The translations under genes and the position numbers were made by a program. Below, piece after piece: positions 2,727 through 22,946 of a stretch of 31,938 nt of DNA (positions within the stretch are counted from its first letter, which is position 1; each line of letters begins with the position of its first letter). Source of the stretch: a virus; the UHGV virus genome UHGV-0224535. One strand, 5' to 3'. The notes beneath the pieces are model-generated. The model was not told the origin of the DNA. It saw only the letters and a list, made by a program, of their open reading frames with translations, and did no database searches.

Positions 2727-2743
2727 AAAGCGTGATCTACCCC

Positions 2744-2790
2744 CGCAAAGTTTACAAAATGGCATTGTTTCAGCAGTGCCATTTTGTTAT
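2744..2790 (+). promoter_or_regulatory. candidate sigma70-like promoter (TTGTTT, 17 nt spacer, TATAAA) overlapped by a perfect 10-bp inverted repeat CAAAATGGCA / TGCCATTTTG
   Basis: Read directly in the 100-nt gap upstream of the 2829 gene; the half-site ACAAAATG recurs at 18967, 22567, 24476 and 31287. Confidence 0.4.
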
Positions 2791-2828
2791 AAAGAAGCTG
2801 AAGAGAGAACGATGCGGAGGGTAGAAAA

Positions 2829-5233: not shown

Positions 5234-5434
5234 ATGTTCGACAGAATACGGGAGGCGTGTGCGTATGTGACTGGGGCCGTAACTGCTTTTTTCGGCGCGA
5301 TAACCATCAATGACATCGCTGTTTTCGTTGGTATCTTATCAACCGTAGGCACATTTGCCGTTAATTATTACTTCAAATCACAGGAGAACAAGCGGGCGCA
5401 AGAGGAACACGACGCGCGAATGGGGAACAAGTAA
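5234..5434 (+). CDS. holin, probably pinholin-type (66 aa, two hydrophobic segments)
   Basis: GGAGG RBS; two TM-like stretches (ACAYVTGAVTAFFGAITI, IAVFVGILSTVGTFAVNYYF), charged C-terminus; immediately upstream of a SAR-type lysozyme. Confidence 0.75.
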   Translation: MFDRIREACAYVTGAVTAFFGAITINDIAVFVGILSTVGTFAVNYYFKSQENKRAQEEHDARMGNK

Positions 5435-5926
5435 ATGATTAGCCAATCGCTAAAGAATAAGATTATTGCTGCGGCGGCTGGTGGGGCTATCGCTATTGCG
5501 GCGGTGATGATAAAAGATCTTGAGGGTGTGGAGTACAAGCCATACAGAGATGTCATCGGTGTTTACACGATATGTTATGGACACGTCGGAAAAGACATCA
5601 TGCTGGGTAAGACTTACACGCAATCAGAATGCGATGCTTTGTTGAACAAAGATCTTCATAAAACCGCAAAAGCGATTGACCCCTACATTAAAGTCGAAAT
5701 ATCAGATTTTACCCGCGCTGCGCTTTATTCATTCGCCTATAACGTAGGCGCTACCAACTTCAAAACATCAACCTTATTGAAGCTACTCAATGACGGCAAG
5801 AAATCAGAAGCGTGCGCACAGCTTAAACGCTGGATTTATGCTGGCGGTAAGCAGTGGCAAGGGTTAATAAACCGCCGTGATGTTGAATATGCCGTTTGCG
5901 AATGGGGTGAAACATGGAAAAGGTGA
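5435..5926 (+). CDS. SAR endolysin (lysozyme with T4-lysozyme-type catalytic spacing)
   Basis: N-terminal Gly/Ala-rich weakly hydrophobic segment [18 protein letters not shown], then E-x8-D-x5-T in [17 protein letters not shown]; overall resembles phage 21-type SAR lysozymes from memory. Confidence 0.85.
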
Positions 5927-6384
5927 AGACGTTAATTATCGCCGCCATTGTTTGTATTGTTGTTGGGCTTGTTGCCGCGCTTAGTCATTGCCAGTCAGTG
6001 ATAAACACAATGCAAAGCGAGCTAACGACCACGCAAGGCGCACTAAAAACAGCGAGTAACACTATTCAGCAGATGAAGGAGCGAAACGCCGAACTGTCAA
6101 AACTTGATAAGAGGTATCACGATGAAATTAAAGCTATCAGATCTGACATTGCCGATCTGCGCACTGGTATTGATAGCGGCGCTATCCGGTTGCACGTCAA
6201 CGCCGAACCAGTGCGATTGCTCGACAATACCGGAACCGCCAGCCGCATTGATGGAGCCACCTGTAGACTCACTCCAGACGCTGAATCGGCTTATCTATCC
6301 CTCAGAGAACAATTAAAAGAAAAAGACGCGAAGATCACCGGATTGCAGGACTACATCAAAACTCAGTGCTTACGCAAAGAATAA
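5914..6384 (+). CDS. Rz: Rz-like i-spanin (N-terminal TM helix, coiled-coil periplasmic domain)
   Basis: [23 protein letters not shown] then helical charged sequence; overlaps the endolysin stop; contains the embedded Rz1 ORF. Confidence 0.75.
6122..6316 (+). CDS. Rz1: Rz1-like o-spanin lipoprotein, wholly embedded in Rz in the +1 frame
   Basis: AGAGG RBS then ATG 6122; [24 protein letters not shown] has a lipobox (LSGC); proline-rich mature part. Confidence 0.75.
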   Translation: MKLKLSDLTLPICALVLIAALSGCTSTPNQCDCSTIPEPPAALMEPPVDSLQTLNRLIYPSENN

Positions 6385-16698: not shown

Positions 16699-17081
16699 AA
16701 CGCAGCGAAGTTTACGACGAAATAAGGGATTGGATTCAATCCCACGGATACGATGAAGGCTATATTTTGCAGGCCCGTTTCTGGAATGAGCGAAGTAATT
16801 CGAATAATGACAGATACATCGTGATCCAGCAAAACGGCGGCGCGGCTGGTGAGGAAGCAATAACCCGTGATTATTTCCGCATCCTGGTTATTTCAGCGCG
16901 TAATGATGCAAATATCAGTGAGGTGGAAGACCTTGCCGATGCCATCCGTCAAAGTATGTTAACAGAATATAAAACTGATAAAATTACACACATGAAGCCA
17001 GTTGGCGCTATTCCTGCAATACAGACAAGAGAAGGGCGCTTTATTTTTACCGTAGCCTTTCAAACCATCATATCAAGATAA
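16695..17081 (+). CDS. tail completion / tail terminator-like protein
   Basis: 128 aa immediately upstream of the major tail protein. Confidence 0.5.
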   Translation: MKRSEVYDEIRDWIQSHGYDEGYILQARFWNERSNSNNDRYIVIQQNGGAAGEEAITRDYFRILVISARNDANISEVEDLADAIRQSMLTEYKTDKITHMKPVGAIPAIQTREGRFIFTVAFQTIISR

Positions 17082-17094
17082 GAGGTAAATTAAC

Positions 17095-17571
17095 ATGTCT
17101 CAGACTTGCGAAAAAGGCACGTTTTCAGGCCGTGACGTTGCTGTATTCTTCGCTATCGCTTGTCCAAATGCGAAGCCGGAAACTGGAGCGTACAAAGCGT
17201 TAGGCATGATGCGTGGTAAAACACTTTCCGTTGAATGGGAAACCGCTGACGCCACCGCCGATAAATCAGCCGATTACACGAAAGAATCAATGGTTACTTA
17301 CAAATCCGTTTCTTTCTCCGGCGACGGTGTGTCCCGCACTGAAGAAATCCATAATCAGAAAGCGCTGAAACGCCACGTAATTACGCCAGGTGAAACCACC
17401 GGATCACAACCTTATGTATGGCTGAAGATCGTTTCTCCTGTAGACGTAACTGAAGGCCCATTCCTTTGCACTTCCTTTAAAGAAGAAGATCCGTATGATG
17501 ATGTTTCCACCTGGTCTATTGAGTGCGAAAGCGCTGGCAAGGTAACGGTAGGCGACGTTCCGCCAGCATAA
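17095..17571 (+). CDS. major tail protein
   Basis: 158 aa, strong RBS (GAGGTAAATTAACATG), followed by a strong terminator. Confidence 0.7.
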   Translation: MSQTCEKGTFSGRDVAVFFAIACPNAKPETGAYKALGMMRGKTLSVEWETADATADKSADYTKESMVTYKSVSFSGDGVSRTEEIHNQKALKRHVITPGETTGSQPYVWLKIVSPVDVTEGPFLCTSFKEEDPYDDVSTWSIECESAGKVTVGDVPPA

Positions 17572-17589
17572 CAGCCAATATTAACAATC

Positions 17590-17614
17590 GGGGCCATTTG
17601 GCCCCTTTTCTTTT
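17590..17614 (+). terminator. rho-independent terminator (GGGGCC-ATTT-GGCCCC followed by TTTTCTTTT)
   Basis: Read directly after the major tail gene. Confidence 0.7.
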
Positions 17615-17626
17615 AAGGTGAATACT

Positions 17627-18304
17627 ATGATCCATGTTCGTACAGGGCAATTTGCGGCTGTGGTGAACGGTAAGCGCTATGAGTTTAATCCTTGCTTTGC
17701 TGCGATGGCTAAAATCGGCAACGATAGTGAGCTTGTCGAATATTTCGCACTTATCCACGGCAGCAAATACCCTTCACGATTACCTACAGATCCAGACCTC
17801 CGCAAACGCATTATGGCACGGTGTTATGGTGAGATAGTGCAAACGTCAATGCGCATCCTGAAATGTTGCTCAGACGACGAAACAGGCCCGTTATTGGGCA
17901 AATGTAGGTTTACTCCTTCTGGTAAATTGAGACTAAAACCCGGACTGATGCCTACAAGTGATGTTATCACGCTGGCGCAACATTGCATGTACCACGGTTT
18001 AATTGGTGACGGGCCGGAAGAAGACACGGGCGCGATCCAGGAAGGCGAGTACAAGCCGACATTTGACGTACTTGAGTTTGTTTATTCTGCCGTTGCTCAC
18101 CTGGGATTGTCAGAATCAGAAGCATGGAATATGACAATGACCGGATACAGGGCCGCAGTGCGCGCTAAAACGCCGCCAGACGAAAGAAATGAAAGAAGTA
18201 GACCAAATGTTCACATAAATAAACGTGCTTATGACGAGCAAATGGAGGCCGCTAAAAAGGCACTGGAAAGAATGAAAAATAGCAAGCAAGAAAAAGCCCG
18301 GTAG
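17627..18304 (+). CDS. putative tail assembly chaperone (position of lambda G/GT)
   Basis: AGGTGA 6 nt before ATG 17627; sits between the major tail protein and the tape measure gene; no frameshift extension found. Confidence 0.5.
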   Translation: MIHVRTGQFAAVVNGKRYEFNPCFAAMAKIGNDSELVEYFALIHGSKYPSRLPTDPDLRKRIMARCYGEIVQTSMRILKCCSDDETGPLLGKCRFTPSGKLRLKPGLMPTSDVITLAQHCMYHGLIGDGPEEDTGAIQEGEYKPTFDVLEFVYSAVAHLGLSESEAWNMTMTGYRAAVRAKTPPDERNERSRPNVHINKRAYDEQMEAAKKALERMKNSKQEKAR

Positions 18305-18315
18305 ATCCGGGCGTT
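18291..18315. terminator. bidirectional hairpin (GCCCGG-TAGAT-CCGGGC) flanked by A5 on + and so T5 on -
   Basis: Overlaps the + gene stop (TAG in the loop); on the minus strand it is followed by a T-run, so it probably terminates the 18320..18733 gene. Confidence 0.5.
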
Positions 18316-18319
18316 CATC

Positions 18320-18733
18320 TTATTTGATTCTAATAATATCAATAAACCCGTTACCCAAATCTACAATTGCGTAATTTTTTGCGCCCGCGCCGCCTTCATT
18401 AAAAATTCTTTCCGCGAAAGCAACTTTATTTGCCTTGCACTCGTTTGCTATCCTGTTTTTTATTTCGCTATTATTTTCAAAGACTACGCCTACAGCAGCC
18501 TCGTTTACAAGGCCATAATTAAACCAGCGAGCATAAACTGGTTTACCTTCAAATTTTTTATCAATTGCCTTAAAAAGAATTGCTGGCGCGGCTGGTTCTT
18601 TTTTGATCATGTCGTGATATGCTGCTACATGGTTTGCCACTTCTTCACAGTTAATGCTTATGGCCTCGTTAGCGTTCGCGTTAAATGCGAGTGCGGCAAT
18701 CACAGTAAGTGCCATTTTTGCTAACCGTTTCAT
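18320..18733 (-). CDS. secreted protein of unknown function (signal peptide MKRLAKMALTVIAALAFNANA), opposite-strand insert in the tail module
   Basis: AGGAG 6 nt before ATG 18733; typical Sec signal with an ANA cleavage site; AT-rich relative to its neighbours. Confidence 0.7.
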   Translation of the reverse strand: MKRLAKMALTVIAALAFNANANEAISINCEEVANHVAAYHDMIKKEPAAPAILFKAIDKKFEGKPVYARWFNYGLVNEAAVGVVFENNSEIKNRIANECKANKVAFAERIFNEGGAGAKNYAIVDLGNGFIDIIRIK

Positions 18734-18961
18734 AATCAACTCCTACCGCTTATTATGATTTGCTAAATTCTTCCTTTAACTTATTTATACACGCATATTG
18801 TTTATTTTTTAAGTGCTTTTAACATTTCTTCGATGAAATCCGCATAGCGTTCATGTTCGTTGGGGCGGTAGTTTGCGTTTTTCATTTTCTTGTCCCCTTT
18901 TGCTTCCTCCGGTTAATCCGGCCTTTTAAATCCATTTGCTCTATCCCTTCCCTTTAGCTTC

Positions 18962-19010
18962 TTTATACAAAATGTATTCGTTGAAATGAAGCCATTTTGT
19001 ATAAAATAGA
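18962..19010 (+). promoter_or_regulatory. candidate promoter for the tape-measure operon with inverted repeat ATACAAAATG / CATTTTGTAT and a TTGAAA / TAAAAT pair
   Basis: Read directly in the 300-nt divergent intergenic region. Confidence 0.4.
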
Positions 19011-19042
19011 GGCATACATCACATTCTGCATGAGGTTAAATC

Positions 19043-21382
19043 ATGGCTACCAGTGTAGGTACAATTTATTACGAAGTTGATGCGAAAACTGGTCAACTTC
19101 TCGTTGCACAACGACAGGCAGACCAGGCCTTTGATCGTATAGAGCGCGGCGCAAAACAGGCTGACCGCCAGGTAAACACCCTGAAAACATCCATCAAGGC
19201 ACTGACCAGGGTTATCCATTTGCTAATTGCTGCCGAGGCTGTGCGCCAATTTATGGATATGGCGGAGCAAGCAAAAATGCTTCGCGTAAAAATCAAAATG
19301 CTTACGGGCGATGCAGAGTCCGCCGGACGGGTTTTTGACGGCCTGAAAGCAATATCCAGGGAGACGGGTCAGAGCCTGAAGGATACTGGCGAACTATGGC
19401 AAGGCCTGGCTATCTCACTGAAGAACACGTCAGCTACCGAAGGTCAATTACTTAACCTTGTCGGCACTATTCAGAAAATGGGGGCGTTAGGCGGTGCGTC
19501 AGCAGAGCAAATGTCAAACTCTATGCGCCAGTTCCGCCAGTCTATAGACGGCGGCGTGCTGCGTGCTGAAGAATTTAACAGCCTACTTGAAAACACCCCG
19601 ACCATCGTACAAACAATGGCCCGCCATATGGGATTATCAATGGGCCAGTTCCGCGCCGAAATGCTGGACGGTAAGATCACGGCAGAAAGGATGGTTAACG
19701 CAATCCAGGCGGCTACGCAGGAAACAAACGAGAAGTTTGCGCAGTTGCCGCGCACATCCGGCACGGCTATCAATGAACTAAAAGTCGAGGTAATGGGTCT
19801 GGTGGAACAACTGGACGATCTTTTCGGTGTATCAGATGGCGTAGTCTCAGCTATCGACTTGATCACAAAAGGAGTTAATGGGCTAGGTGAGGGCGCTAAA
19901 TTCGCTAAAACCTGCTTTGATACGCTCAAAACGGCTGGTAGCGAATTCATCGACATGTTTGATGATGTGGCTGTGAAGGCTGGCGAGGTGGCAGAGAAGA
20001 TCATCGCAATGGTGACGCCAATCAAGGCGCTAATGGATGGCTATAAATGGATGAAAGAGATTGTCGATGAACGCAAGGAAGAACTAAACAGCAACAACGA
20101 GAAAAAATTTGGCCCTACCATCGGTAAATTCATGACGTTTAAAAACGACATTGAAAAGGCGACCGCCGCTTATGACGAGCTTATGCAGAAACAGGCAGAA
20201 GCCAACGACGGAGCTATTACCGGATTCGATAAGCCAGTTGATAAGCCGAAAAAACAGAAAAAAGAGAAGAAATCGGAAGCTGATCGGCTTGGAGACAAGG
20301 GCATAAGCGTTTCTGATCAGTACAACAAAGACGCCGCCGCCATGCGCAAAGCGTTAGAGAACGGCAAGGCCATTGATGCTGCGTTCGCCCAGGGTAAAAT
20401 CACACTCCTTGAGTACCGCGCCGCGCAAAAAGGGATCGGCAAGGAACTGAAAGAAGAATTAGCGCAGATCCCGGTAGATGAATTGCGTGATAAATGGTCG
20501 CAAATAGTTAGCCCAATGGACCAGCTAAAAGGCGAAGTTGACCCTATCCAGCAGGCGCAAAATGAATGGGCCGTCCGTAAGCAAATGCTTATCGACCTGG
20601 GCGCTACAGAAGCACAACAGAAACAGGAATTATTAGCCTATGAGCAGCAGATCCGCGATCTGAAGTGGGAACAGTGGCAGGCGCAAAGCCAGACAAACGG
20701 CCTGATCGGTGATTGCGTTAATGGCCTTAAAGGTGGCATGAGCAATGCGCTTGTTGGCCTGCTTAACGGTACTCAATCATTGAGCGATGTTTTTGCTAAC
20801 TTAGGCAGCAATATACTTGGGAATATCGGTAACAGACTTTCGGACATAGCTGCCAACTGGATAGCAGATCAAATCATGATGGAGACACAAAGCAAAGCCA
20901 CGCAGGCCAGCACAACGGCAAGCGCGGTTGCCGCTCAGGGAAGCATTGCGGCGGCGGCGGCCCCGGCGGCGGCAGCGACAGCGGCATCAACTGGCGGTAG
21001 CTGGGCGGCGGCTGGCTCGGCGGCGCTTACTGCGATCATGTCGCTGGCAACATCCATTTTCGGCGGCGGGCGCTTTAATGGTGGTAGCGTAATTGGTGGC
21101 AATATGTACCGCGTCGGGGAACATAACAGGCCGGAGCTATTCCAGACGTCTAACGGCAACCAATACATGATCCCCGGCGAGAATGGCAGGGTTATCCCGG
21201 GCCGTGATATTGGCGGCGGCGGCGGTATCAGTATGCCTGTTTACATCGACATTCAAACCACAAACGGATTTAGTGACGAAGACAGCCGCAGACTTGAACA
21301 GACAATGGAACGTGTAGCCATGAAAATGATAACAAGGGAATCGCAAAGACCTGGCGGGATGTTGCAACCGCGCCGCAAATAA
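19043..21382 (+). CDS. tail tape measure protein
   Basis: 779 aa, largely helical, with a Gly/Ala-rich segment; position between chaperone and minor tail genes. Confidence 0.9.
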   Translation: MATSVGTIYYEVDAKTGQLLVAQRQADQAFDRIERGAKQADRQVNTLKTSIKALTRVIHLLIAAEAVRQFMDMAEQAKMLRVKIKMLTGDAESAGRVFDGLKAISRETGQSLKDTGELWQGLAISLKNTSATEGQLLNLVGTIQKMGALGGASAEQMSNSMRQFRQSIDGGVLRAEEFNSLLENTPTIVQTMARHMGLSMGQFRAEMLDGKITAERMVNAIQAATQETNEKFAQLPRTSGTAINELKVEVMGLVEQLDDLFGVSDGVVSAIDLITKGVNGLGEGAKFAKTCFDTLKTAGSEFIDMFDDVAVKAGEVAEKIIAMVTPIKALMDGYKWMKEIVDERKEELNSNNEKKFGPTIGKFMTFKNDIEKATAAYDELMQKQAEANDGAITGFDKPVDKPKKQKKEKKSEADRLGDKGISVSDQYNKDAAAMRKALENGKAIDAAFAQGKITLLEYRAAQKGIGKELKEELAQIPVDELRDKWSQIVSPMDQLKGEVDPIQQAQNEWAVRKQMLIDLGATEAQQKQELLAYEQQIRDLKWEQWQAQSQTNGLIGDCVNGLKGGMSNALVGLLNGTQSLSDVFANLGSNILGNIGNRLSDIAANWIADQIMMETQSKATQASTTASAVAAQGSIAAAAAPAAAATAASTGGSWAAAGSAALTAIMSLATSIFGGGRFNGGSVIGGNMYRVGEHNRPELFQTSNGNQYMIPGENGRVIPGRDIGGGGGISMPVYIDIQTTNGFSDEDSRRLEQTMERVAMKMITRESQRPGGMLQPRRK

Positions 21383-21386
21383 CACT

Positions 21387-21413
21387 AAGGCCGCTATAAG
21401 CGGCCTTTATTTT
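21387..21413 (+). terminator. rho-independent terminator (AAGGCCGC-TATAA-GCGGCCTT followed by TATTTT)
   Basis: Read directly, 5 nt after the tape measure stop. Confidence 0.65.
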
Positions 21414-21519
21414 ACATGGTAAGGATATAAATTAAACAGCACAGGAATGCGGGCGCGGCGAAGTCGCAAACGCTAGCCATATTCCATGCTTTTGGTAAAA
21501 AACCACCATACCACGGCAT
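21412..21519 (-). CDS. possible small hydrophobic protein (35 aa from an internal ATG)
   Basis: GGAGGG RBS before the ATG; C-terminal half is hydrophobic (FAAPAFLCCLIYILTM); weak. Confidence 0.25.
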   Translation of the reverse strand: MPWYGGFLPKAWNMASVCDFAAPAFLCCLIYILTM

Positions 21520-21562
21520 TCTTTCTCGTTTCCCTCCGCAAAATTCCGCTATGTAACGATAT

Positions 21563-21697
21563 TCAGCCTGTGTGTTCCCGCGCAAAAAAGAATGTACATC
21601 CAATCAGGCCGCCAGTGAGATAATCGCCAGTAAGCAGGCCGATAACAACCTGTATAGTCGCCGCAGCCAGTGCGTGACCAATAACGGTTAAATCCAT
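21563..21697 (-). CDS. small membrane protein (44 aa, one TM helix)
   Basis: GGGAGG 7 nt before the ATG; MDLTVIGHALAAATIQVVIGLLTGDYLTGGLIG...; start is 2 nt after the upstream gene stop. Confidence 0.4.
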   Translation of the reverse strand: MDLTVIGHALAAATIQVVIGLLTGDYLTGGLIGCTFFFAREHTG

Positions 21698-21699
21698 CG

Positions 21700-21885
21700 T
21701 TAATCCTCCCGATCGTTCTCAAATGTGCCATCTACAAATTTTTGCAGCCCGGCGATAAGTTGTGTTGCCTGCGATTTTTCAATCACTATGGTTTCAGTCC
21801 CCATAAGTTCGGTTATCCACAGCCGACCATCCTCATCAAGATCTAACCTAACTCCGTAACATAACTCTGTTTCGTCAATAATCAT
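21700..21885 (-). CDS. hypothetical acidic protein (61 aa)
   Basis: Strong RBS AGGAGG; track ORF. Confidence 0.6.
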   Translation of the reverse strand: MIIDETELCYGVRLDLDEDGRLWITELMGTETIVIEKSQATQLIAGLQKFVDGTFENDRED

Positions 21886-21994
21886 TTTTCCTCCTATAAT
21901 CTTCCGTTACGTGCGACGTAACCCCTGCCGAACATCACTAACCAGATGTTCCAGATCTCCCGCTAGGTATATTTCTCCTCCTCCATATTCCACC

Positions 21995-22249
21995 TCACTT
22001 ATGAGCGCCTTTCACTCCGCAATGACGGTTGTATTCCAGGTGATCGATAATTAACCAAATATTCAAATCTTCACTGAACAGCCGCCAGTCAGGATTGATA
22101 TCGAATTTAAAGCCATAACCATCACGTAATTTTTTGGGGCGGGCTTCTTTTTTCAGGAAGGCGTTAAGCAACTTCTTGCCTTTCTTGATTACCCGTTCCT
22201 GTGCATTCTTTTGTGCTTTCAGGTTTTTTTCGATAGTTACCAGTTTCAT
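21995..22249 (-). CDS. hypothetical basic protein (84 aa)
   Basis: Track ORF; GGGTGAG RBS; Lys-rich N-terminus (KKGKKLLNAFLKKEARPKKLR). Confidence 0.55.
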   Translation of the reverse strand: MKLVTIEKNLKAQKNAQERVIKKGKKLLNAFLKKEARPKKLRDGYGFKFDINPDWRLFSEDLNIWLIIDHLEYNRHCGVKGAHK

Positions 22250-22266
22250 AACTCACCCCATCGTCC

Positions 22267-22422
22267 TTAGTTAAGCGCCCTCAGGAAGAAATCCCGGTAT
22301 TCATCATCCTTCGCGTTCATCATGAATTGACCGTATTTGAATGCGTCGTCGAAACCCTTAACAATTGCTACTTCCACTTGCTCGAATGCGTTGTTTAGCA
22401 TCACTACTACATAGCTACTCAT
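22267..22422 (-). CDS. hypothetical small protein (51 aa)
   Basis: GTGAGG RBS before the ATG; MSSYVVVMLNNAFEQVEVAIVKGFDDAFKYGQFMMNAKDDEYRDFFLRALN*; first gene of the minus-strand island. Confidence 0.45.
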   Translation of the reverse strand: MSSYVVVMLNNAFEQVEVAIVKGFDDAFKYGQFMMNAKDDEYRDFFLRALN

Positions 22423-22535
22423 TTTTGGGCCTCACTTGCTGGTACCGCTTTTCTTCTTGCTTCCTGTATACAGCTTGTTGCTTCATGTGTGAATCCATAT
22501 TGTAAACTAGCTATAATTCTTGTGATGAATATCTC

Positions 22536-22560
22536 ATTTTTCGCGTAGAAGCGCGTAAAG
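22536..22560 (+). promoter_or_regulatory. conserved 25-nt motif ATTTTTCGCGTAGAAGCGCGTAAAG (copy 2), upstream of the gpM-like gene; TATAAT-like element at 22513-22518
   Basis: Matches 10099-10123 at 21 of 25 positions; followed by TACAAAATGTAAC. Confidence 0.45.
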
Positions 22561-22592
22561 ATATATACAAAATGTAACTTACAGGAGGGGGT

Positions 22593-22946
22593 ATGCCGGA
22601 AGTGTTCAGATGGACACCACAGAGAAGCTACAGCGTAAACAGTGAGCCTAACGTGTCCGTTATCAAGCTGGGCGATGGCTATGAACAGCGCCAGACAAAA
22701 GGGATTAATCCACTACTTGACAGCTATACGCTGGTCTTTAAAGGTACGAGCGCCGGATGCGGTGACGCCGGAAACGTGGCGCTCCAGGTTGACGCATTTT
22801 TAAGAGCACGTTGCGCGGTCGAGGCGTTTTACTGGACGCCATCTACAGACGGAGTGAAAAGGCTTTTTGTATGCCGAAAGTGGAGCATGGCGAAAGACGG
22901 CCCGGTATGCACTCTGAATGCAACGTTTGAACAAGTTATCAATTAA
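22593..22946 (+). CDS. minor tail protein, lambda gpM-like
   Basis: 117 aa; ...KLGDGYEQRQ... and C-terminal FEQVIN resemble lambda M (remembered FEQVVN); sits upstream of the L/K/I/J set. Confidence 0.75.
   Translation: MPEVFRWTPQRSYSVNSEPNVSVIKLGDGYEQRQTKGINPLLDSYTLVFKGTSAGCGDAGNVALQVDAFLRARCAVEAFYWTPSTDGVKRLFVCRKWSMAKDGPVCTLNATFEQVIN

Follow-up and report, generated by a model that had tools for sequence, protein, structure and literature searches.

An exchangeable reverse-strand cargo gene for a predicted periplasmic protein between the DUF6246 and tape measure genes of an mEp021-like temperate phage of Escherichia coli

Introduction

Gene 15 of phage HK97, the first moron to be named, has the tail assembly chaperone and tape measure genes as its two neighbours and provides superinfection exclusion, its product gp15 blocking the DNA entry of superinfecting phages (PMC3594210). 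Here we present a description of a gene in the corresponding genomic slot of the UHGV virus genome UHGV-0224535, a stretch of 31,938 nucleotides (nt), hereafter called the window, which belongs to an mEp021-like (mEpimmI) temperate siphophage of Escherichia coli. The gene (18320..18733, minus strand) encodes an orphan protein of 137 amino acids (aa) that is predicted to be secreted, with a predicted mature part of 116 aa (N22-K137); F2 is used here as the label for the family of this protein. F2 is one of the cargo alleles that replace each other in a fixed socket, which is placed backwards between a DUF6246 gene (17618..18304, plus strand) and the tape measure protein gene (19043..21382, plus strand). 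The socket consists of a promoter-like module, a leader open reading frame (ORF) of 27-29 aa, a ribosome binding site (RBS) with the codons of the signal peptide, and a terminator that includes the stop of the DUF6246 gene; the mature domain comes from the cargo. F2 is a new, uncharacterised protein family; the kind of element to which it belongs, a phage add-on, is already well known.

The strongest analogy between F2 and HK97 gene 15 is positional, namely the slot itself. Both genes are also add-ons with a deviating GC content and a terminator of their own, and both products are directed to the envelope (by prediction, in the case of F2). However, gp15, a relative of host YebO, is small and resides in the inner membrane, whereas F2 has a predicted cleavable leader and is predicted to be soluble in the periplasm. 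Unlike HK97 gene 15, the F2 cassette is read from the opposite strand, and it is one among several alternatives that occur in a fixed socket. F2 showed no Pfam or PHROG match to gp15/YebO and no tblastn match outside the mEpimmI group in 50,697 phage records, among which HK97 is assumed to be present.

The mEpimmI phage group, in which small exported Lpp lipoproteins serve exclusion, is reported to equal lambdoid phages in frequency in a collection of human faecal origin (PMC11893012). These Cor/Llp-like lipoproteins share with F2 the phage group, a reverse-strand gene past a plus-strand tail gene, a terminator at the junction, an upstream region containing TATACAAAATG, and a product exported by a signal peptide (predicted for F2). 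They differ in carrying a lipobox, in their length of about 80 aa and in being matched to the receptor type (OmpA or LamB), whereas F2 has no lipobox and occurs with both receptor types.

Sim of P1 is a soluble, signal-peptide-processed periplasmic superimmunity protein of a temperate coliphage that blocks infection past adsorption; to our knowledge, its mechanism is itself poorly known. A soluble periplasmic block beyond adsorption is also what F2 may exert, but size and genomic position differ between the two, and tblastn gave no match (P1 likewise being assumed to be among the 50,697 records). Ltp of the Streptococcus phage TP-J34, a secreted all-helical protein, binds the incoming tape measure protein and stops DNA injection, and thus is a precedent for the mechanism suggested by the position of F2 beside the tape measure gene. 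F2 itself is outside the gp15/YebO, Cor/Llp/Lpp, PADLOC and EF-hand families.

The slot and its cargo

The slot was surveyed in 77 IMG/VR loci together with the GenBank and RefSeq loci that have the DUF6246 gene, and the contents before the tape measure gene were catalogued. The slot is occupied in 54/54 E. coli-type loci, where reverse-strand genes take up 646-1318 nt. The spacing of the DUF6246 and tape measure genes in 13 distant relatives ranges from a 16-nt overlap to 165 nt (≤110 nt in 12 of the 13); the DUF6246 gene lies directly before the tape measure gene in loci L008, L060 and L073. In relatives with flanks 93-95% identical, other reverse-strand genes fill the slot, but the tail genes on either side are retained. 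The F2 ORF is thus literally absent from otherwise near-identical genomes, which the preliminary description of this DNA, made from the sequence alone, would have taken as telling against the gene; the pattern signals dispensability and cassette exchange, not a spurious ORF. Across positions 17000-19500 the DNA of the window shares 89% identity with phage MagusPhagus and 81% with mEp021, and the IMG/VR locus L010 is nearly identical to the window. Plus-strand ORFs within the slot are not conserved, and none of at least 60 aa is present in the slot of the window.

The cargo at the first position is F2 in 19 loci, a VasI/TagO-like lipoprotein (PF11319, 58 bits; PHROG 1848) in another 19, a secreted family of 116-119 aa (F9) in seven, a secreted protein of 165 aa (F15) in one and a lipoprotein of 245 aa (F19) in one; seven loci have no first-position cargo and hold the second-position membrane pair alone. 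The second position is optional and takes a 124-aa lipoprotein, a leaderless 106-aa protein or the membrane pair (35 aa and about 100 aa). The match of the 124-aa lipoprotein to BamE is weak (18.9 bits, below the cut-off of 23.2), and the end of its gene overlaps the DUF6246 gene by 8 nt; locus L046 combines it with F2. Alternative cargos were seen in loci L004 (2819-3863, minus strand), L006, L017, L007, L012 and L052. Every E. coli-type member examined thus has an occupied slot, always with envelope-directed cargo, and at least five unrelated first-position families follow one common leader.

Over the first 60 nt the DNA identity between F2 and F9 reaches 93%; directly beyond this leader part it is 44%. 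Alignments of F2 with F9 and F15 by hhalign were confined to the leader and the first residues, the mature domains not being detectably related. The lipoprotein alleles (F3) have a similar leader, with DNA up to 68-75% identical, which ends in a lipobox. The presence of unrelated mature domains behind common leader DNA therefore lends independent support to the export signal, and the position of the break in similarity shows an exchange of mature domains at the predicted signal-peptide cleavage site.

The left flank, which had been called a tail chaperone, is a plus-strand gene at the chaperone position, but that label is positional only: the product matches Pfam DUF6246 and PHROG 791, neither of which has an assigned function. 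Neither in the window nor in loci L008, L060 and L073 did the DUF6246 gene show an ORF, or the space, for a lambda G/GT-type extension by frameshifting. Regarding the features of a moron in the Juhala/Hendrix sense (PMC3594210), three of five are found at the locus, i.e., extra DNA, deviating GC content and an own terminator. The other two features of the set are an own promoter, for which the candidates are given below, and expression from the repressed prophage. The GC content of the slot is 0.382, compared with 0.480 in the flanks, and an equal contrast occurs in seven related loci, in agreement with the AT-rich segment noted earlier.

Gene and protein features

The mechanical ORF list extends the frame of F2 to a TTG at 18739. 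The ATG was taken as the start codon because all homologues begin with MKRL and because the RBS TAGGAG (18740..18745, minus strand) lies 6 nt before it; on the same grounds the 137-aa minus-strand ORF with its own RBS, as claimed in the preliminary description, is real.

The signal-peptide codons M1-A21 (18671..18733, minus strand; MKRLAKMALTVIAALAFNANA) were assigned from heuristic features, with cleavage predicted before NEA. The n-region is MKRLAK with a charge of +3, the h-region MALTVIAALAF comprises 11 residues (best 10-residue Kyte-Doolittle mean 2.56), and the c-region is A19-N20-A21, followed by N22. This call was made with our own feature heuristic, which was applied to the window ORFs of at least 80 aa and scored a signal-like N-terminus in 3/43 of them: F2, a lipobox lipoprotein and an ORF of the lysis cassette, the score of which comes from its N-terminal hydrophobic segment. 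F2 has the sequence features of Sec/signal peptidase I substrates (charge, h-region of 10-15 residues, small residues at -3/-1), and these are conserved in all homologues. The heuristic found no lipobox ([LVI][ASTVI][GAS]C) in F2, the first cysteine of which, C29, is located beyond the predicted cleavage site. The Sec-type signal peptide with cleavage after ANA that had been proposed is thus borne out in its N-terminal features, by heuristic only. We infer that the precursor leaves the cytoplasm through Sec and that signal peptidase I cleaves it behind A21, yielding a mature protein of 116 aa that would be helical and soluble in the periplasm. The number of Asn-Ala repeats at the cleavage region varies from two to four (AFNANA, AFNANANA and AFNANANANA; homologues P0003 and P0004, locus L020), and this variation probably arose by slippage in an imperfect AACGCN repeat.

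An AlphaFold2 model of F2 (predicted local distance difference test score, pLDDT, 78.7; predicted template modelling score, pTM, 0.77) comprises the leader helix, five helices and a C-terminal beta-hairpin. C29, C99 and 63 other positions, together with the leader, are invariant across the homologues, and the mature protein probably contains a C29-C99 disulfide.

An intrinsic terminator recognised by fold and sequence (18286..18312, minus strand; stem GCCCGG/CCGGGC, 5-nt loop, T-run) begins seven bases past the F2 stop. It reads GCCCGG-ATCTA-CCGGGC (18312..18296, minus strand) followed by TTTTTCTT, with a hairpin free energy of -16.5 kcal/mol (z = -4.3). On the plus strand its 5' arm represents the last two codons (Ala-Arg) of the DUF6246 gene, the TAG stop of which (18302-18304) was found in the hairpin loop; this confirms the hairpin that had been described as sharing sequence with that stop codon. 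The hairpin is retained in the E. coli-type loci listed, whatever their cargo, with a variable loop and one stem mismatch (in L026). Rfam matches within the slot were all far below the gathering scores.

Conservation and distribution

A search of 5.8 billion sequences yielded F2 homologues in 17 protein clusters that are 67-96% identical, and every named one was from E. coli. Three of the 17 clusters are truncated (75-86 aa), and among these three P0018 looks frameshifted. The ORF is intact, with 137-139 aa, in 19/19 loci carrying F2. Among 16 unique nucleotide sequences the median pairwise ratio of nonsynonymous to synonymous substitutions (dN/dS) was 0.088 (0.071 for the mature part), with dS ranging up to saturation. 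F2 is a protein-coding gene under strong purifying constraint.

Of 5,426 complete E. coli genomes eight contain the F2 gene, in each case once, on the chromosome and between the DUF6246 and tape measure genes; all F2 hosts are E. coli from gut or animal sources. Regarding the 50,697 phage records, tblastn matches (E ≤ 0.01) were restricted to three phages of the mEpimmI group, and tblastn found no F2 on plasmids.

F2 had no match in Pfam or PHROGs (E ≤ 0.1 or 0.01) or in NCBIfam, and the 5,027 defence-protein models of PADLOC-DB 2.0 matched neither F2 nor any alternative cargo. A sequence profile search against the PDB gave noise only (E ≥ 0.56), and no fold relative of F2 was detected. Neither by sequence nor by fold was a relative detected beyond E. 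coli prophages. A profile search of 1.84 billion representatives returned the F2 family itself, one fragment, and EF-hand-like repeats in two long tandem-repeat proteins. An EF-hand identity of F2 residues 39-75 was rejected; an EF-hand loop of 12 residues would have acidic or polar ligands at positions 1, 3, 5 and 12, but in the candidate loop D-K-K-F-E-G-K-P-V-Y-A-R the third residue is Lys and the twelfth Arg, D58 is not invariant, and calcium ligands are missing.

Upstream module

Upstream of the cargo, as part of the fixed upstream module, lies the micro-ORF F1 (18802..18885, minus strand; 27 aa, MKNANYRPNEHERYADFIEEMLKALKK), which has an RBS of its own. F1 is hydrophilic, measures 27-29 aa, and is an intact, separately called ORF in 36/54 loci and deleted in 14/54; its dN/dS is 0.068, and no family match was found for it. 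A candidate proximal sigma-70 promoter, TTAAAA-17-TATAAA (18784..18812, minus strand), was read from the sequence and lies in a 45-nt insert which is found only in the window-type subgroup of F2 loci.

A conserved, promoter-like block is located at the divergent junction with the tape measure gene (18950..19023). It has the form TGTGAT-N13-TTTATACAAAATG-N18-CATTTTGTATAAA and contains a 13-bp perfect inverted repeat (18962-18974 and 18993-19005), with TATAAA (18967-18962, minus strand) as a possible -10. The key positions are invariant in 40 unique sequences, and the inverted-repeat block folds far better than shuffled sequence (z = -6.6). In mEp021 the 11-mer TATACAAAATG has six exact copies, all intergenic and mostly just before a gene or operon begins. 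At the rightward early promoter of mEp021 (TATACAAAATGgaTTGACT-17-TATATT) it stands directly upstream of the -35; the corresponding sequences are TTTACAAAATGgcTTCACA-17-TATATA at an island past the tape measure gene and TATACAAAATGgcTTCACT-17-TATAAA at the slot. A further copy is found upstream of mEp021_81 (gp81, cloned as pLpp021), a lipoprotein gene that has been validated by experiment as an exclusion factor (PMC11893012). The architecture of the slot module is that of the rightward early promoter: motif, 2 nt, -35, 17 nt, -10.

The window contains a second full copy of the module at 2729-2810 (plus strand) in an array of small genes (local alignment score 49, strong), and partial copies at 22521-22574 (plus strand) before the gene at 22593, at 24422-24434 (minus strand) and at 31249-31284 (minus strand) upstream of the gene at 30904..31152. 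The repeated pattern comprises TGTGAT, TATACAAAATG, the inverted partner 18 nt off, and then TATAAA GAAGCT; this composite pattern, designed after the sites had been seen, occurs three times in the window, with none expected. The local alignment between the slot and Lpp upstream regions is marginal (score 25, equalled by 8/1000 shuffles).

This motif context makes it probable that the cassette is served by a promoter of the kind standard in this phage; for the module itself, an UP-like element, an operator and a CRP-assisted promoter are all conceivable. With respect to CRP, TGTGATCT agrees fully with the left half of the consensus, and 9/10 core positions are matched by the copy upstream of Lpp; a CRP site remains speculation, the spacing to the candidate -10 being inconsistent between the copies. 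As to the inverted repeat as a possible operator of the CI-like repressor, no clear operator common to both mEp021 early promoter regions was found.

Proposed function

The exclusion reading is drawn from the match to the HK97 gp15 slot and from the use of small exported lipoproteins for exclusion in the mEpimmI group. In the proposed mechanism, the F2 precursor would be exported by Sec and its leader cut after A21; the mature protein, with its probable C29-C99 disulfide, would stay soluble in the periplasm and act in the envelope to the benefit of the lysogen or infected cell. There it might block a periplasmic step of an attack from outside, above all the DNA delivery of superinfecting phages, as HK97 gp15 does. 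By this analogy F2 may be a periplasmic superinfection-exclusion or envelope-protection factor, a reading which we favour and consider plausible, without holding it to be probable. The mEp021 homologue of F2, gp63, is annotated 'hypothetical', and proteins of that phage detected by mass spectrometry are annotated 'virion structural protein'; by this annotation F2 is not a virion protein, which we count in favour of the exclusion reading. The preliminary description had noted that periplasmic proteins encoded in tail modules are often conversion or exclusion factors: F2 behaves as accessory cargo, exchanged between near-identical flanks, but it matches no known exclusion, conversion or defence family.

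Several points weigh against an exclusion or protection factor. The protective function is a matter of analogy only, and the homology search, although it recovered the 17 homologous clusters, gave none outside E. coli prophages and no known family. The F2 cargo shows no link to the tape-measure type (tape measures 98-99% identical to that of the window go with F2 or with the VasI-like cassette) or to the receptor type, being carried by both mEp021, which uses OmpA, and mEp010, which uses LamB (PMC11893012); a factor tuned to the phage's own entry machinery therefore receives no support. The window already has a Cor/Llp-like exclusion lipoprotein (30904..31152). As to expression, the candidate -10 lacks the usual final T, and a stricter consensus promoter scan called none on the strand of F2. 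The TATACAAAATG motif is also present at an early promoter that must be repressed in lysogens; therefore prophage expression of F2 is uncertain, and this shared motif leaves room for a role in the lytic cycle.

The combined proposal goes further, stating that the slot is a fixed expression-and-export socket in which unrelated domains are swapped by recombination at the cleavage site, with F2 as a new soluble periplasmic type that would block phage DNA entry or another envelope attack; taken as a whole, we regard it as possible and rather doubtful. Should the cargos prove to serve exclusion or protection, the slot would amount to a small natural collection of anti-phage or anti-toxin proteins of the periplasm and also to a clear case of domain swapping at a signal-peptide junction. 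F2 itself has modest practical value as a small, clean candidate with no known homologues beyond E. coli prophages, and the socket architecture, with its common leader and exchangeable mature domains, is the more interesting novelty.

Lambda Bor and Lom are precedents for envelope conversion factors, and F2 might similarly be a lysogenic-conversion or host-fitness factor that changes the envelope of the lysogen (stress tolerance, serum or bile resistance, colonisation). Such a role would agree with the moron architecture of the locus, with the independence of cargo type from the receptor and tape-measure types of the phage, with the resemblance of other cargos to host envelope proteins (the VasI/TagO-like one and, below threshold, the BamE-like one) and with the gut or animal origin of all E. 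coli hosts. F2 is, however, without similarity to known conversion factors and rare in complete E. coli genomes, and we consider a conversion role conceivable and somewhat doubtful.

A lytic-cycle accessory protein, switched on early upon infection or induction and protecting the infected cell or the progeny in the periplasm, would have a parallel in Llp of T5, which blocks the receptor during infection. The architecture shared with the rightward early promoter and the second full module copy at 2729-2810 are consistent with such timing, and the inverted repeat could be an operator. On the other hand, the motif also precedes the Lpp exclusion lipoprotein gene (tested by plasmid expression only), no operator-like sequence common to both early promoter regions was found, and a minus-strand operon within the late tail operon would meet late transcription head-on. 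A lytic-cycle role is accordingly judged unlikely.

Less likely still is an orphan periplasmic immunity-type protein directed against an antibacterial toxin, for instance a type VI secretion system (T6SS) effector, a colicin or a contact-dependent inhibition (CDI) toxin. The small size of F2, its predicted periplasmic location and disulfide bond, and a polymorphic locus at which one leader precedes several alleles unrelated to each other would suit such a protein, as would the membership of one alternative allele in the T6SS-associated VasI/TagO family; however, no function is known for VasI/TagO, which is not an immunity protein (PMC13584744), and no toxin gene lies nearby in the window. Finally, a spurious or decaying ORF without function, to which the three truncated clusters, one of them seemingly frameshifted, and the absence of F2 from many close relatives might point, is highly improbable and effectively already refuted by the low dN/dS at dS values up to saturation, the intact ORF in all 19 loci carrying F2, and the conserved RBS, leader and cysteines.

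Other features of the window

Just past the J gene, with a terminator at the junction, the window encodes on its minus strand an 82-aa lipobox lipoprotein (30904..31152) that is 91.5% identical to Lpp010 of mEp010. Lpp010 excludes LamB-dependent phages, lambda included (PMC11893012), and the likeness suggests that the phage of the window uses LamB.

Two more reverse-strand islands, each with negative GC skew, interrupt the plus-strand tail operon at 21400-22500 and 23384-24489 (minus strand); their small ORFs encode 61, 84 and 51 aa and 67, 82, 149 and 102 aa, respectively. Matching reverse-strand islands are present in mEp021, one of them with a putative antirepressor. Counting these islands, at least four backward cargo sites are thus present in the tail module.

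The lysis cassette (5234-6384, plus strand) comprises a holin-like ORF of 66 aa, an endolysin of 163 aa with a hydrophobic N-terminus, an ORF of 156 aa with an N-terminal hydrophobic segment that may be the inner-membrane spanin, and an embedded ORF of 70 aa with a lipobox-like LSGC that may be the outer-membrane spanin. The annotation of mEp021 agrees for the holin, the lysozyme and the lysis protein.

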